Assembly: GCA_963730155.1 (NCBI GenBank)
Contig: CAVSQV010000003.1
Coordinates: forward strand, 1,123,226 to 1,187,225
DNA: 64,000 nucleotides
Reading direction: 5' to 3'
Source of the DNA: an uncultured Acidobacteriota bacterium
GTDB taxonomy: Bacteria; Acidobacteriota; Thermoanaerobaculia; Multivoradales; JBCCEF01
A program made the translations under genes and the position numbers. Positions 9,824-18,384 of the stretch are shown here, one piece after another. Below the pieces are notes generated by a model. It worked only from the letters and a program-made list of their open reading frames with translations. It was not told where the DNA came from and ran no database searches. The stretch's first letter is position 1. The number at the start of each line of letters is the position of its first letter.

Positions 9824-10276
9824 CTACTCCAGCGCGACCTGTTCGACCACCCAGGTGCCGGTGAGCCGGCCGCCGCGCGCGCGCACCTCGGCCTCCCACT
9901 CCCCCTCGGCCGCTCCCGCGCCCAGGCGGCCGCGCATGAAGCCGGTAAAGGGCACGCGGTAGAGCTCGGCACGGCCGGCGCCCTCGAAGGTGGCGTAGAA
10001 GTGATCGCCCTCGATGCGCCCCTCCATCTCGGCGGTGAACGGGGCGCCGTCGGCGGTCTCCCCCTCGATCGCGCCGGTCAGCTCGTCGCCCCGGGCGTCG
10101 ATCCGGAACTCGACCACGCCCGACAGGCTCCCGGCGAAGTCGCCGCGCCAGGTGCCGCGGTTGGGCGACGGCGCGCAGGCGGCGGAAGTCAGGGCGACGA
10201 GGGCGACGAGAGCCGCGGCGAACGGTCGGACGGATGGCCGACGGCCGAATCGTGGACGGGGCAGGGCGGCTTCCAT
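9824..10276 (-). CDS. Hypothetical lipoprotein
   Basis: Lipobox LTSAAC. Codon usage is consistent with neighbours. No family recognised. Confidence 0.55.
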   Translation of the reverse strand: MEAALPRPRFGRRPSVRPFAAALVALVALTSAACAPSPNRGTWRGDFAGSLSGVVEFRIDARGDELTGAIEGETADGAPFTAEMEGRIEGDHFYATFEGAGRAELYRVPFTGFMRGRLGAGAAEGEWEAEVRARGGRLTGTWVVEQVALE

Positions 10277-11429: not shown

Positions 11430-11459
11430 CTTATGGCGGGCGGGCTTATGGCGGGCGGA
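11430..11459. repeat. 15-nt tandem direct repeat (x2) between the operon terminator and the SDR gene
   Basis: cttatggcgggcggg followed by cttatggcgggcgga (29/30 identical). Confidence 0.6.
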
Positions 11460-11474
11460 CCCACCGCGTGCGAG

Positions 11475-11514
11475 GTCCCACCCGATGCCCCCGGCAGGGG
11501 CCTTCGGGTGGGAC
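11475..11514 (-). terminator. Long compound hairpin downstream of the 12554..11536 two-gene operon
   Basis: gtcccacccga ... tcgggtgggac forms an 11-bp outer stem that encloses gcccc/ggggc. Confidence 0.5.
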
Positions 11515-11535
11515 GTCGCCCTGACGGGTCGCGGA

Positions 11536-11988
11536 CTAGCGATCGGCGAGGCGGACGGAGAGCAGCCGGACCTCGAAGCCCGGCTCCTCGGCCCGCGCCA
11601 GCGCCGCGGCCGGCACGGCGATCTTCTCGCCGTGGGCGATCTCGCGGTCCTCGATCCACTCGCCGTTCTTGGCCTCGGCGGCACGGCTGGACTCGAGCCG
11701 GTAGAACGCCAGGCGCGTCGCATCGCCGCGGAGCGAGATCGCCTCCGCCGCGATCCCCACGGTGGTCCCGCGGGGCGACAGCCGTACCGTGCCCATCTCG
11801 CCTTCCCGGATCAGCAGTCTGCCGATGACCTGGTCGCCCTGGCTCACCTCGAGGGCGATCGCATCCAGGCCGCGCGTGTCGACGCCGGCGAAGGCGTCCG
11901 CTCCGCCGCCCGCGAGGGCGCCGAAGGCGAAGGGGGTGATCAGGCCAACGGCCAGCGCCGCCGCAAGCACGATTCTCTTCAGGCGCAT
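11536..11988 (-). CDS. Secreted hypothetical protein, paralog of the upstream gene without the Cys tail
   Basis: Starts MRLKRIVLAAALAVGL (signal peptide). AGGAGGAG lies upstream of the ATG at 11988. Start is internal to ORF 11536..12081. Confidence 0.6.
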   Translation of the reverse strand: MRLKRIVLAAALAVGLITPFAFGALAGGGADAFAGVDTRGLDAIALEVSQGDQVIGRLLIREGEMGTVRLSPRGTTVGIAAEAISLRGDATRLAFYRLESSRAAEAKNGEWIEDREIAHGEKIAVPAAALARAEEPGFEVRLLSVRLADR

Positions 11989-12002
11989 TTTTTTCTCTCC
12001 TC

Positions 12003-12554
12003 CTAGAACGAGCAGCATACCCCACACGACATGTGGACGCAGAACGCACAGATCTCGGCCTCGCCACATGTGATGCAGCACTGGATCGGTCGGAGTGGGG
12101 AATCGCTGCCGGTCAGCGGTGCGGGGATGGTGATCTCACGCAGCTCCACGGGCTCGATCTGGATCGTCCGCCCGAAGGTCGCCGCCGTCGCCGAGCCCTC
12201 GCCGACCGCCGGCAGGGGCACGACCTCGATCAGGTTCGCGAGATCCGCGCCTTCCGTCCGGATCCGCTCGTAGACCTCGATGGCGACCGGCCGCACACCC
12301 TCACCCGTGGCCGGAGCCAGCGTCGGCACGAGCTGGAGGACGCTTCCTGCCCGGGTACGCACCTGGGTCGGCTCGCCGACCAGCGCCGTGGCCTGGAACA
12401 TCTCGCCATCGACGCTCATGCGCAGCACGATCGCCTGACGGACCGTCTCGCCCCCGGCGCCGACCTTCTCGGTGGCCCCCGCCCCGGTGACCGCGACGAG
12501 GCTTAGCGCCAACGCCGCGGAGTGCGCGAGCAGGGATCTCCTGTTCTGTCGCAT
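12003..12554 (-). CDS. Secreted hypothetical protein with an 8-Cys C-terminal tail
   Basis: Starts MRQNRRSLLAHSAALALSLVAVTGAGA (signal peptide) and ends PIQCCITCGEAEICAFCVHMSCGVCCSF. GGAGGAGG lies upstream of the ATG at 12554. Confidence 0.65.
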   Translation of the reverse strand: MRQNRRSLLAHSAALALSLVAVTGAGATEKVGAGGETVRQAIVLRMSVDGEMFQATALVGEPTQVRTRAGSVLQLVPTLAPATGEGVRPVAIEVYERIRTEGADLANLIEVVPLPAVGEGSATAATFGRTIQIEPVELREITIPAPLTGSDSPLRPIQCCITCGEAEICAFCVHMSCGVCCSF

Positions 12555-12790
12555 GTACCTCCTCCCCTGTATTCTGAGGTTCTTGCTTTGGGATTCAACC
12601 AACACTACGCGAGATCTGTTCAGGAGTAAAGTGCGGATCGCTCACGGCTTGGGGACATCTCCGGACGCGCCGAGGCAGTGGCGAAGAGATCCCCGAATCT
12701 CTACAATGCGTCCCGGATCCGTGCGATCCGGGCGCACCCGAGCAGAGCCCGGACCGCCTCCCAAGGCCGACCGTCACAAGGAGGATCGCG

Positions 12791-13255
12791 ATGTCCGATT
12801 CGAGCTGGCCCGCTTCCCGCTTGCTGGTGCTCGCCCTGGCTTTCGCGCTGGGTTGCGGCGGGCGAGACGCACCGCCCGCCGAGCCAGCCGCAGCCGAGCC
12901 AGCCGACACGACGCCCGCGGCAGCGGCGCCCGAGGAGGTCCGGCGGTACGTGCTCGTCGTCACTTCCCAGGCCACCGACTTCAGCGCCGAGGGGACGATC
13001 GAGGAGGGGCAACTCTTTACGGTCGCCGAGGACGAGGGCGAGGGCCTCGGCTTCCGGCCGACCGGGATCGAGGAGAAGGAACCGGGCCAGCGGCTGGTCG
13101 CGCTCGACGTAGTGCTCCTCCACGGGGCGGGCACCGACGGCCGAATCGAGGAGCCCCTGACGAGCCTGCTGGTGGTCGAGGGCGGCACGGCCACCGTCGA
13201 CCCCGGCGACGACGAGGGGACCTTCACGGTCCAGGTCGCCACCGAGGGCACATAG
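12791..13255 (+). CDS. Hypothetical lipoprotein
   Basis: Lipobox LAFALGCGG. AAGGAGG lies upstream of the ATG. 154 aa. Confidence 0.6.
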   Translation: MSDSSWPASRLLVLALAFALGCGGRDAPPAEPAAAEPADTTPAAAAPEEVRRYVLVVTSQATDFSAEGTIEEGQLFTVAEDEGEGLGFRPTGIEEKEPGQRLVALDVVLLHGAGTDGRIEEPLTSLLVVEGGTATVDPGDDEGTFTVQVATEGT

Positions 13256-13280
13256 ACCCCCTGAGCGGGGGCGGCGGGCC

Positions 13281-14072
13281 TCAAGGCTCGCCCCCCGGGG
13301 TGCCGGCCGGTGGGGCGGCGGTCCCGGGACCGCCGCCCGCGAGGATGATCCTCGAGAGCTCGACCCGCAGGCTCCCGACGTCCGGCGGGCCTTCGACCTC
13401 ACCCACCTCGCCTTCGCGCAGATCGAGCGTGGCCGGCGGCCGCGAGCCCGCCATCGGGAGGAGGATCAGCCGAGCCCGCCGCTGCTCCGGGTCCGTGACC
13501 TCCGCCCACAGGCGGAGCGCCCCCGCTCCCGGCAGCCGCAGCACCGCGCTCTCGGTCTCCGAGATCCGGAGCGTCGCCGGCGCGTCGAGGCCGGGATGGG
13601 AGACCACGACCACCACCGCCGGCCCGACGACGACGTCGACGGGGTCCGTCCTCAGCGGGGTCGGGAAGACCGGCAGGCTCGACGGCTCATCCTCGATGCG
13701 CCTCCGGATCAGGCCGTCGGCATCGCGGATCACGCCGGCATCGAGGAAGAAGTCGAGCAGGTCCGCCATCGCGATCTTGCTCTCGGACCTCGCCGCCGCG
13801 ACGATCAGGTTCCCCTCCATCTCCATCTGCTGGAGGCGGCGGTTCTCGCAGCCCCCGAACCACTGCGTGGCGATCGCGACAAGGATCACCGCTCCCGCCG
13901 TGATGATCGCGTTCGTGGGCCACCGGCTCTCGCGCTCCTTCGCCTTGACCTCCAGCTCCCTAGCCTGGACCTCGCGCGAGCGCAGCTCGAGCTCGCGGCG
14001 GAGCAAGGCCGCCTCGGCCTCGAACTTCCTCTCCTCGAGGGAGGGTTCCGGCGGCGGCTCGTCGGCGCTCAT
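13281..14072 (-). CDS. Membrane-anchored hypothetical protein (coiled coil, one TM segment, extracytoplasmic domain)
   Basis: The charged heptad-like N-terminus (EERKFEAEAALLRRELELRSREVQARELEVKAKE) is followed by a hydrophobic segment, AIITAGAVILVAIATQWF. Confidence 0.6.
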   Translation of the reverse strand: MSADEPPPEPSLEERKFEAEAALLRRELELRSREVQARELEVKAKERESRWPTNAIITAGAVILVAIATQWFGGCENRRLQQMEMEGNLIVAAARSESKIAMADLLDFFLDAGVIRDADGLIRRRIEDEPSSLPVFPTPLRTDPVDVVVGPAVVVVVSHPGLDAPATLRISETESAVLRLPGAGALRLWAEVTDPEQRRARLILLPMAGSRPPATLDLREGEVGEVEGPPDVGSLRVELSRIILAGGGPGTAAPPAGTPGGEP

Positions 14073-16163: not shown

Positions 16164-17984
16164 TCAGTCCGCCGGCGGCCGGACCAGCACCCGGCCCGGG
16201 CGGTCGCGCAACTCGACGGTCATCTCGCCGAGGCCGGCCGGCGCACCCGGCGGCGCCGAGACGTCGACCGACAGCTCGTAGTGGCCGGCCAGAGTGCGGG
16301 CCAGGCGGCGGGTGACCTGGCCGGCGAAGGTGTGGGTCTTGTCGTAGGTGCCGCCGGTCTCCTCGGCGATCGCGCGCAGCCCCATTTCGAGGTCGTGGTA
16401 CTCGGCGTCGGTGACGTCGAGCACGAACACCGAGGCGCGCGCCGCCGCCAGCGCCGCCACCGCCTCGGCATGGCCCGGATTGCGGCGAACGACGCCGCGG
16501 TCGAGCCGGCCGAGCCCCCAGCCGAGCCAGATCACCGCCTTCTCGCCGGGCAGGGCGACCAGCGCCTCGGCGGTCATCTCGAGCCCGCGCTCGGCGGTCG
16601 CCACCGCCATCGCCACCCGCGGGTCCCAGCGCTCGCCGAGCCCCGGGCCGTCAGGGCGCCGGCCCGCCGGCCGGCCGCCGAAGTACGCGGCCCGTTCGAG
16701 CGCCTCGTACACGGCGTCGCGGTCGCCGGTGAAGTCCTGCCACAGCTTGAGGTGCGAGTCGAAGGAGACCACCGCCAGCCGGTCATCCGCCGGCAGCGCC
16801 TCGATCAGCTCGCGGGCGAACGGAAGCTGCTTGAACTGGCCGCGCAGGCGGATCGCCTGCGGGTCGGTCTGGACGAACAGCAGCACCAGCCGGCCCGCCG
16901 GCCCGGCGCCGCCGTCGGCTCCCTCGCCGCCCGGCCGCCGCGGCGCGCCCATACCGTTGCCGGCCTCGTCGTCCGCGGCACCGCCGGCGGCGACCCAGTC
17001 CACGGCCACCACCGGCAGCTCCCGCCGCCCGGCGCCGCGCCCGGCGTGGACGACGAAGTCGGCGGCGCCGAGACCGGGGATCGGGTCGCCCGAGCGGTCG
17101 AGCGCCCGCACCACCAGAGTGCGCAGCGCCACCTCGATGGACTCGCCGAAGCCGGCCTGGGGATCCGCGCCGCCGGACCCCTGCGCCGGCGCCGGCGCCG
17201 AAGGCTCCCAGCGCTCGACCCGGCGGCTGCCGGGCGGCGGCGCGTAGGCGACCTCGCCGGCGGCCGGCGGCGACCCCGGCCGGTGGCTGACCCGCCATCG
17301 GATCGCCGCGCCGCCCGAGAGCGTCGCCGCGCCCGGCGGACCCGGCGCCGGGAGCGCCGGCGCCAAGAGCTCGACCTCGGCCTCGAAGATCAGCAGCCGC
17401 TCGCGCTCGATCACGAGCCGGGAGCGGACCGCGCCGCCGTCGAACGCCAGCGTCAGCACCCAACACTCGGCGCCGTCGCCGCACGGCTCCGGGCCGTCGA
17501 CCGCCGCCGCCGAGGGGTCGGCGAGCGGCGCCGAGCTGCCCGCGAGGAGCGCCGGCACGGCGAGGGCGTCGAGCCCGCCGGAGCCGAGGCCGGCGGCCCC
17601 GGGCAGCCCCGCGACCGCCGCCGCCGCCGACCCGAAGGCGAGCCGCTGCCCGCGGGCGGGGTCGTAGATGCCGCCGTCACCGGCATCGCCCCAGAGCACC
17701 CGCTCGCCGCCGGCGGCATCGCGCAGGACGAGGCGGAGGGCGCCGCCGGCCGCCGCGGTCTCGAAGTGCCAACGACGGACCGTGGTCTCGCCGCCGGCGT
17801 TCTCGGTTCGCTCGATCTCGCCCTCGTCGCGGTAGGCCGGCAGGGCACGGTAGGCGCGCTCGACCGCCGCCCTCAGCTCCGCGGGCGAGGGGACCCGCTC
17901 CTCGGCGGGCGCCGCCGTCCCGGCCGCCGAGGTGGCGGCGAGCACGGCGAGGGTGGCGAGCACGGCGGCGGCGCGGGCGCTCAC
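16164..17984 (-). CDS. VWA-domain protein of the TIGR03436-like type, with a LolA-like N-terminal domain; start uncertain
   Basis: VLLFVQTD...DRLAVVSFDSHLKLWQDFT...VFVLDV...ETGGTY. A signal-peptide-like segment follows the GTG at 17984. The ATG given by the ORF track (18149) would overrun the divergent vapB promoter. Confidence 0.7.
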   Translation of the reverse strand: MSARAAAVLATLAVLAATSAAGTAAPAEERVPSPAELRAAVERAYRALPAYRDEGEIERTENAGGETTVRRWHFETAAAGGALRLVLRDAAGGERVLWGDAGDGGIYDPARGQRLAFGSAAAAVAGLPGAAGLGSGGLDALAVPALLAGSSAPLADPSAAAVDGPEPCGDGAECWVLTLAFDGGAVRSRLVIERERLLIFEAEVELLAPALPAPGPPGAATLSGGAAIRWRVSHRPGSPPAAGEVAYAPPPGSRRVERWEPSAPAPAQGSGGADPQAGFGESIEVALRTLVVRALDRSGDPIPGLGAADFVVHAGRGAGRRELPVVAVDWVAAGGAADDEAGNGMGAPRRPGGEGADGGAGPAGRLVLLFVQTDPQAIRLRGQFKQLPFARELIEALPADDRLAVVSFDSHLKLWQDFTGDRDAVYEALERAAYFGGRPAGRRPDGPGLGERWDPRVAMAVATAERGLEMTAEALVALPGEKAVIWLGWGLGRLDRGVVRRNPGHAEAVAALAAARASVFVLDVTDAEYHDLEMGLRAIAEETGGTYDKTHTFAGQVTRRLARTLAGHYELSVDVSAPPGAPAGLGEMTVELRDRPGRVLVRPPAD

Positions 17985-18096
17985 CGGCCGGTCCCGGTCC
18001 CGCTCGGGCAGCGCCCCTTCTCTGGGTCCGTTGCGCTCCACGCCCAGACTCTCTATCACGGTCCCCGATGCCGAGGGGCGCCGGCGTTGCAGCGTC

Positions 18097-18125
18097 TTGA
18101 CGGCTCCAGGCTCTACATACAGAAT
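18097..18125 (+). promoter_or_regulatory. Sigma70-like promoter for vapBC-2; implies a leaderless antitoxin mRNA
   Basis: TTGACG, a 17-nt spacer, then CAGAAT. The vapB ATG begins 8 nt after the -10 element and no SD sequence lies between them. Confidence 0.4.
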
Positions 18126-18132
18126 TGCATGC

Positions 18133-18384
18133 ATGAGCACCAAGACCATCGCCGTCGATTCGCAGGTCTACGAGCGCTTGGCACGGGTGAAGCGGGAGGG
18201 GGAGTCGTTCTCCAGGGCGATCGACCGGATCCTCGAGGAGGTCGGCGCCGTGCACACCGGGAGAGACGTCCTCCGGGCTCTCGAAGGCGTCGTTCCACTA
18301 CCGGAGGCGGATGCCGCGGTCATGCTGGCCATCGTGGAGGAGAACCGGGCCGACGAGGCCTGGGAGCGACGTGATCTGCGTTGA
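18133..18384 (+). CDS. vapB: VapB-type antitoxin (PF02697-like 'putative antitoxin')
   Basis: 83 aa starting MSTKTIAVDSQVYERLARVKREGESFSRAIDRILEE. Overlaps the PIN gene by 14 nt. Confidence 0.75.
   Translation: MSTKTIAVDSQVYERLARVKREGESFSRAIDRILEEVGAVHTGRDVLRALEGVVPLPEADAAVMLAIVEENRADEAWERRDLR

Follow-up and report, generated by a model that had tools for sequence, protein, structure and literature searches.

What is a small secreted protein that ends in eight cysteines within 25 residues, and what is its relation to the exported proteins encoded beside it? The question is raised by a gene cluster in a 64,000-nt stretch of DNA from an uncultured Acidobacteriota bacterium (contig CAVSQV010000003.1); the whole stretch is referred to below as the window and has a GC content of 73%. 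Members of this phylum rank with the most abundant bacteria of soil, and a large share of the proteins that they export lacks annotation. An earlier note had reported the Cys-rich tail on only the first protein of a two-gene pair in the window, a reading that the translations confirm, and the observation of a Cys-tailed exported protein cluster is real, not a matter of chance. The features of the tail-bearing gene, whose product is named P0001, are as follows; AF2 denotes the AlphaFold2 model, ORF an open reading frame, and GC3 the GC content at third codon positions.

12003..12554, minus strand: gene of the Cys-tail protein (P0001, 183 aa), with signal peptide, beta domain, linker, and Cys-rich tail (ORF, translation, GC3 of 0.88, AF2)
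12474..12554, minus strand: predicted Sec signal peptide, codons 1-27 (basic n-region, hydrophobic core, and GAGA before the likely cleavage site)
12126..12446, minus strand: beta domain of eight strands, codons 37-143 (AF2 and Foldseek)
12006..12092, minus strand: tail, codons 155-183, in which RP is followed by CC-x2-C-x5-C-x2-C-x4-CG-x-CC (alignment, AF2)
12003-12005, minus strand: stop codon (TAG)

Signal peptides were called by reading sequence features. The N-terminus is signal peptide-like in every aligned relative of P0001, and residues 7 to 20, within the predicted signal peptide, form a helix in the AF2 model at a low predicted local distance difference test score (pLDDT).

Sequence conservation of the Cys-rich tail

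The earlier note had proposed searching the tail as a motif across metagenomic proteins and had allowed that it might be unique to this sequence. A tail-family profile (A5) was built from 11 sequences and searched against 1.84 billion representatives of clusters at 50% identity. In total, it matched 676 representatives at an E value of ≤1e-3, 225 at ≤1e-10, and 9 at ≤1e-30, with P0001, which carries the core spacing, as the best match (E = 1.2e-50). The tail is therefore not confined to the window but conserved in hundreds of clusters and, judged by sequence, defines a large, uncurated protein family. P0001 itself combines the three features by which family membership was defined: the C-terminal core, at least one beta domain, and an export signal. 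Other searches returned fewer relatives. In a word-based protein search the tail protein had a single close homolog, as did its partner; a profile of the partner found 7 matches, the type A tail alignment used as a locus query found three loci, and a narrow alignment used in the same way found zero relatives. A six-frame search located more tail genes in the window's own genome (G000), in the related carrier genomes G004 and G007 (five matches in the latter), and in two genomes of the same order.

The exact core spacing, CC-x2-C-x5-C-x7-CG-x-C, was present in 142 of 151 inspected representatives; glycine follows the sixth cysteine in 141 of these 142, and valine occupies module position 14 in 134. 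In an alignment of the 18-sequence subfamily to which P0001 belongs, R155, P156, C159, C160, C163, C169, C172, C177, G178, C180, and C181 are invariant. The R-P dipeptide ahead of the first CC is thus fixed in the window's subfamily, whereas it is not conserved in most of the wider family. The module spans 23 to 30 aa, of which 32 to 40% are cysteines. It lies at or near the extreme C-terminus in all members, is carried almost only by one domain type, and is accompanied by a predicted signal peptide or transmembrane (TM) anchor at the start of every family member examined.

The tail variants comprise a 6-Cys core, the 8-Cys type of the window, a 10-Cys type, and a 12- to 13-Cys type. The 8-Cys type equals the 6-Cys core plus cysteines at module positions 13 and 22 (C13 and C22), and it ends two residues after the final CC. 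C13 was present only together with C22 (19/19); eight sequences, the 6-Cys variant, lack both. In two others, which have C22 but neither C12 nor C13, one additional Cys follows C22. The 10-Cys type, with C12 and a further CC, is the most frequent (67 sequences). This paired gain and loss of cysteines provides a concrete, testable disulfide map. What was a single odd tail is now a definable family of at least 676 clusters at 50% identity, with a rigid Cys framework and a conserved multi-paralog module, and the data suffice for building family models and for choosing targets for structure determination and for redox or metal chemistry.

Two observations concern unusual members. A subfamily including P0070, P0071, P0089, and P0124 has a conserved 13-Cys layout, PCxxCC...CCCPxxCxC, followed by an additional single Cys 10 to 25 residues downstream, and many of its members end in a short basic stretch; this distal Cys and basic end may be a separate processing or anchoring feature. 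P0112 (135 aa) consists of two tandem Cys modules with no beta domain, so the Cys module can stand alone and repeat.

A beta domain shared by four exported proteins

Three further genes of the cluster were compared with the tail gene:

11536..11988, minus strand: gene of the tail-less partner (P0005, 150 aa), with a predicted signal peptide, a beta domain of the same type, and zero Cys (ORF, profile, AF2)
12791..13255, plus strand: gene of a lipoprotein (P0003, 154 aa) whose C-terminal ∼105 aa are the same beta domain (lipobox-like ALGC, hhalign)
13281..14072, minus strand: gene of a membrane-anchored paralog (P0004, 263 aa) (sequence, neighborhoods, hhalign)

All four ORFs were confirmed at the coordinates previously assigned to them. 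Their GC3 of 0.88 to 0.93, as opposed to a GC content of 0.51 to 0.53 at codon position 2, is the coding signature of a 73% GC genome, and the four ORFs therefore look coding. P0004 has a charged coiled-coil N-terminus, one TM helix, a periplasmic helical region, and the beta domain at about residues 140 to 245.

The first two proteins had been described as paralogous, and C-terminal regions of similar flavor had been noted in the lipoprotein and the TM protein. Pairwise BLASTP among the four proteins gave nothing significant (E = 0.095 to 54), and profiles were therefore needed. In a search of the window's genome, a 120-row tail-family profile matched the partner gene with an E value of 5.7e-7. 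When mature domains were aligned with hhalign, the tail protein matched the partner with P = 1.8e-4 over 91 columns and the membrane-anchored type with P = 1.1e-5 (probability, 82%; 96 columns), and the lipoprotein type matched the membrane-anchored type with P = 7.6e-8 (probability, 94.5%; 98 columns). Reversed-sequence controls gave P values of 0.003 to 0.89, and the partner aligned only weakly with the anchored types (P = 0.004 to 0.08). The paralogy of P0001 and P0005 thus survives proper statistics at the profile level, with matching AF2 topology, but not at the level of BLASTP, and the likeness between the lipoprotein and the TM protein is that of one shared domain. Profiles and matching predicted topologies together link the pair despite its divergence. 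Four exported proteins of the window, one secreted with a tail, one secreted without, one lipoprotein, and one membrane anchored, share one beta domain.

The AF2 model of P0001 (pLDDT, 87.5; predicted template modeling score [pTM], 0.77) places strands at residues 37-48, 51-58, 63-67, 72-79, 90-100, 103-114, 122-126, and 129-143, with pLDDT values of 90 to 97. The mature part of the P0005 model (pLDDT of about 90) likewise has eight strands, in the same order as in P0001 and of similar lengths. Foldseek searches, also proposed in the earlier note, were run with both models against the PDB and returned nothing below an E value of 0.03, the template modeling score of the P0001 model being at most 0.25; the P0001 model found nothing below 0.027 in BFVD. 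The C-domain of NAD kinase was among the weak PDB matches of both models. The best match in a sequence-profile search of the PDB was CsgC, which was not significant (E = 0.08). In a scan against Pfam and NCBIfam, the four window proteins reached an E value of 0.036 at best, in agreement with the earlier statement that no family could be recognized, and the same scan of 120 family members gave single-member matches only, all but four of them (best, 2.7e-4) weaker than E = 0.003. The literature on the motif and related topics yielded nothing relevant. Look-alikes in a protein atlas were unnamed clusters of Acidobacteriota and Spirochaetota only; low-score hints from the atlas to radical-SAM target repeats and to the methylamine dehydrogenase light chain were not taken as real. 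As modeled, the ∼105-aa eight-stranded beta domain is previously unclassified and has no PDB counterpart.

A conserved gene pair within a multi-paralog module

Among sampled genomes of the window's phylum, 14 of 401 contained a match to the family profile, as did 2 of 151 in the phylum of a Marinimicrobia metagenome-assembled genome (MAG). The family is therefore patchy in its distribution, yet diverse in metagenomes. Co-occurrence of the gene pair, another check that had been proposed, was examined in the related loci (designated L0xx) and in the carrier genomes. A homolog of the partner lies directly beside the tail gene in G004, at three loci of G007, and in a metagenomic relative (L018). 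The tail gene likewise has a tail-less neighbor of the same type in an Acidobacteriota MAG and the Marinimicrobia MAG (loci L019 and L020) and in a JGI metagenome contig (L040), and in the last of these the two proteins share 53% identity across 161 residues (E = 8e-64). In a lineage in which the tail protein has two domains, a nearby tail-less protein also seems, by eye from its sequence, to have two. The pair recurs in G004, G007, L018, L019, L020, and L040, and, as judged from gene order and sequence, one paralog with a tail and one without form the conserved unit.

Relatives that are membrane anchored or lipoproteins are located directly upstream of, or divergent from, the tail gene in G000, G004, G007, and L018. 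More specifically, in G004 and G007 the tail gene is immediately preceded by a homolog of P0004; neighbors of the membrane-anchored type occur in G000, G004, and G007, and a homolog of P0003 occupies the same divergent position in L018. The size of the family, the conserved pairing, and the presence of membrane-anchored paralogs, some of them helix-turn-helix (HTH)-like, in the same module had been missed in the earlier note. No enzyme, transporter, or regulator was consistently adjacent in the window and the related loci examined. A linkage of the module to TIGR03436, an acidobacterial VWFA family present in 26 to 28 copies per genome (28 matches in the window's genome), was rejected, as none of these genes lies beside the modules of G004 or G007; that such a gene adjoins the module in the window and at L042 is coincidental.

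The window's genome carries a second tail gene on contig 3 at about 2060779-2061189 (L010, 3777-4187, minus strand). Its product has a leader or TM segment, a linker of ∼70 aa, and an 8-Cys tail, with no beta domain, and it is followed downstream by genes for two further proteins, one with a TM segment and one a paralog of the lipoprotein P0003. The gene lies directly after what appear by eye to be succinate dehydrogenase genes, as does the tail gene of an Acidobacteriota MAG locus (L021).

Membrane-anchored forms with HTH-like domains

Two metagenomic proteins, P0118 and P0146, are single polypeptides in which an HTH_17-like N-terminal part on the cytoplasmic side is joined to one TM helix, the beta domain, and a tail with 6 Cys. 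Their HTH was recognized by eye, with a Pfam E value of 0.057 for P0118 and no match for P0146. At L042 (1444-2157, minus strand), the neighbor of a tail gene encodes a tail-less TM protein that is HTH_17-like (E = 7e-4) and has a periplasmic part rich in beta structure. These HTH matches are below Pfam thresholds (E = 7e-4 to 0.06). Forms that join an HTH-like domain, a TM helix, the beta domain, and the tail point to a putative role in envelope binding or sensing rather than catalysis.

Candidate structures and functions of the tail

The earlier note had offered three possibilities for the tail: a metal or Fe-S-like cluster site, a disulfide knot, or a sorting or processing signal. With moderate confidence, we favor a disulfide-stapled double beta-hairpin knob. 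In the AF2 model, the tail comprises four short strands that form two hairpins with 2-residue turns, at 159-163/166-170 and 172-175/178-181 (pLDDT, 96 to 97). The predicted registers place C160 opposite C169 and C172 opposite C181, and C172/C181 is the very pair that comes and goes as a unit among family members. The disulfide knob is favored on three grounds taken together: the change of Cys number in pairs, the export of the proteins, and the predicted hairpin registers. Under this proposal, the module would be exported unfolded by Sec and then oxidized to a compact double beta-hairpin with three to five disulfides. In P0001, C160-C169 and C172-C181 would form within the hairpins, and C159, C163, C177, and C180 would bridge between them. 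The resulting knob, rigid and protease resistant, could serve as a binding or sensing surface and might, together with the paralogs that lack a tail or are membrane anchored, make up an envelope module. The machinery of the carriers bears on this reading. G007 encodes an exported DsbA-like oxidoreductase with a CPFC site, all carriers tested, G000 among them, gave Thioredoxin_4 matches, and G000, G004, G007, and the further carrier G008 encode heme-copper oxidases, which indicates an aerobic life of the carriers. The family raises the question of whether bacteria make knottin-like modules that are exported by Sec and serve in sensing at the envelope or in interactions between bacteria.

Several results weigh against the disulfide knob. 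The parity of the Cys count in mature proteins, 105 even versus 46 odd among 151 sequences, is indecisive as a disulfide test, and in one subfamily the conserved number of cysteines is 13. Searches for DsbB and VKOR detected neither in G000 (79% complete), G004 (99%), G007 (95%), or G008 (99%), so the usual disulfide-generating machinery is incomplete as far as the models used can see. The CxxC, CC, and CxC motifs would suit metal-thiolate sites too, and the CxxCG of the first knuckle is a feature of rubredoxin-type sites as well. A complex prediction for the tail protein and its partner gave an ipSAE of 0.01, which does not support binding and, for this tool, is no evidence against it.

The strongest competitor, a serious though less probable one in our estimate, is a metal-binding site for periplasmic metal buffering, delivery, or sensing. 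It could take the form of a Cys4 Zn/Fe knuckle pair (C160/C163 with C177/C180, the other cysteines being in one or two disulfides) or of a metallothionein-like thiolate cluster. The three CxxC motifs of the tail, the CxxCG of its first knuckle, and its Cys content of up to 40% would suit such a site, as would the variants with CCC and CxC runs and with odd Cys totals, often 13, and the failure to find DsbB and VKOR in the closest carrier genomes, two of which are 99% complete. The correlated loss of the fifth and eighth cysteines could also be the loss of an accessory site. However, the spacing and the non-Cys positions (V, T, G, V, and G) are rigidly conserved, a defined beta structure is predicted for the tail, in contrast to typical metallothioneins, and cysteines are gained or lost two at a time. 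The proteins are moreover Sec exported, in aerobes that encode DsbA-like proteins; metal-handling genes were not consistently adjacent in the loci examined, and no Pfam metallothionein or rubredoxin model matched.

A pre-pro-protein is a still less probable alternative. On this account, a Cys-knot of ∼25 aa would be cut off after the conserved L-R-P as a diffusible signal or antimicrobial peptide, with the beta domain as pro-domain or chaperone, the tail-less paralog as immunity or decoy factor, and the membrane-anchored paralog as receptor. The order of signal peptide, pro-region, and C-terminal Cys-rich peptide fits this account, and so do the invariant R-P directly before the first CC in the window's subfamily, the conserved pairing with a tail-less paralog, and the second gene of the same genome, which consists of leader and tail only. 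However, the R-P site (positions -6 to -1) is not conserved in most of the family, and tails also end membrane-anchored proteins with a weak HTH_17-like domain, where release makes less sense. No protease or exporter was consistently adjacent at the loci examined, and AF2 yields one well-defined model of P0001 (linker pLDDT, 77 to 78; pTM as given above). We consider it similarly doubtful that the genes constitute a new Sec-dependent, maturase-free system of peptide signaling or antagonism in Acidobacteriota and in other bacteria of the environment. In such a system, a knot peptide with four disulfides would be delivered by a folded pro-domain and then sensed or neutralized by tail-less and anchored paralogs of the same domain, some of them linked directly to an HTH in the cytoplasm.

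The idea of a C-terminal sorting or anchoring signal for a dedicated processing enzyme fares worse, and we regard it as very unlikely. The tail is always at or near the extreme C-terminus, and the one subfamily with a further distal Cys and a short basic end would agree with such a function. However, the TM helix and basic cluster of known C-terminal sorting domains are lacking, P0001 ending 2 residues after its last CC. The tail is also restricted almost entirely to one domain type rather than to diverse cargo, no NCBIfam sorting-domain model (PEP-CTERM, MYXO-CTERM, GlyGly-CTERM, and the like) matched, and AF2 predicts compact folding. Among the three possibilities first offered, the disulfide knot is thus favored, the metal site is kept alive, and the sorting or processing signal is disfavored.

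Hardly credible is the core of a ribosomally synthesized and posttranslationally modified peptide (RiPP), with enzymatically modified cysteines (thioether or sactionine type) and the N-terminal domain as leader: the Cys-dense C-terminus and a low-scoring radical-SAM target repeat family in a language-model look-alike search (0.63) speak for it, but all members examined have a Sec signal peptide or TM anchor rather than being cytoplasmic precursors, no NCBIfam RiPP precursor model matched beyond one isolated chance-level match, and no radical SAM, SPASM, LanM, YcaO, cyclodehydratase, or lanthionine enzyme lies near the locus or the related loci examined, in line with the earlier judgment that a RiPP reading is weak for want of a nearby maturase (none within about 10 kb here).

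Likeness to known systems

The family invites comparison with membrane one-component regulators whose periplasmic sensors are disulfide controlled, namely ToxR/ToxS, TcpP/TcpH, and CadC; the comparison concerns a possible mode of action. P0118 and P0146 resemble these regulators in having a weakly HTH_17-like N-terminus, a TM helix, and a Cys-bearing periplasmic beta domain, and a small periplasmic partner is encoded alongside. Unlike in these systems, there are 6 to 13 cysteines instead of a single pair, the window proteins are without a DNA-binding domain, and neither sequence nor fold matches.

Heat-stable enterotoxins of the STa type are Sec-exported pre-pro-peptides that yield a small C-terminal peptide with several disulfides formed in the periplasm. 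P0001 shares with them the succession of signal peptide, pro-region, and C-terminal peptide with a CC-x2-C start. It differs in that its N-terminal part is a folded domain of ∼105 aa rather than a short pro-peptide, there is no Pfam match, and the cleavage site is not conserved family-wide. The short predicted hairpins, CC doublets, and very high Cys density of the tail recall the stacked disulfide-linked beta-hairpins of granulins and knottins, a likeness at the level of secondary structure; the Cys framework and length differ, and Foldseek found no such match in the PDB. As for the beta domain, periplasmic Ig-like beta-sandwiches of the CsgC and DsbD-N type come closest, in that CsgC, a small periplasmic beta protein like the window protein, was its best profile match in the PDB. 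That match is not significant, as given above, and Foldseek does not support it.

Expression signals and neighboring genes

The tail gene and its partner are on the same strand, 14 nt apart, and form the two-gene minus-strand operon described earlier. The signals read around them are as follows:

12558..12567, minus strand: Shine-Dalgarno sequence GGGGAGGAGG of the tail gene, ending 3 nt 5′ of the ATG at 12554
11997..12004, minus strand: Shine-Dalgarno sequence AGGAGGAG of the partner gene, 8 nt 5′ of the ATG at 11988 and overlapping the TAG stop of the tail gene
11475..11514, minus strand: GC-rich hairpin core 3′ of the partner gene (wider structure, about 11455-11532; minimum free energy, -57.8 kcal/mol; z, -3.1)

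Both ribosome-binding sites are strong and of the GGAGG type, as had been read at both starts. The overlap of the partner's Shine-Dalgarno sequence with the tail-gene stop codon makes translational coupling likely, and the sequence suggests that P0001 and P0005 are probably produced as a coupled pair. The long hairpin described as the operon's own terminator is present, but it has no U-tract and therefore went unreported by a consensus intrinsic-terminator scan. The gene arrangement also needs a partial correction. The lipoprotein gene is divergent from the pair, as stated, but the coiled-coil/TM gene, which had been placed with it, is on the operon's strand and convergent with the lipoprotein gene.

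Two other proteins of the window may be mentioned. A 661-aa protein (16164-18149, minus strand) has no Pfam match at E ≤0.001 and a match to TIGR03436 below the cut-off (58.5 bits), and a 150-aa protein with a lipoprotein-like N-terminus and no Pfam match (9824-10276, minus strand) is encoded between the FKBP and SDR genes. Beyond these two, the neighbors in the window encode thymidylate synthase, a DUF480 protein, a HYDIN-type Ig protein, a choice-of-anchor I protein, and alkaline phosphatase.

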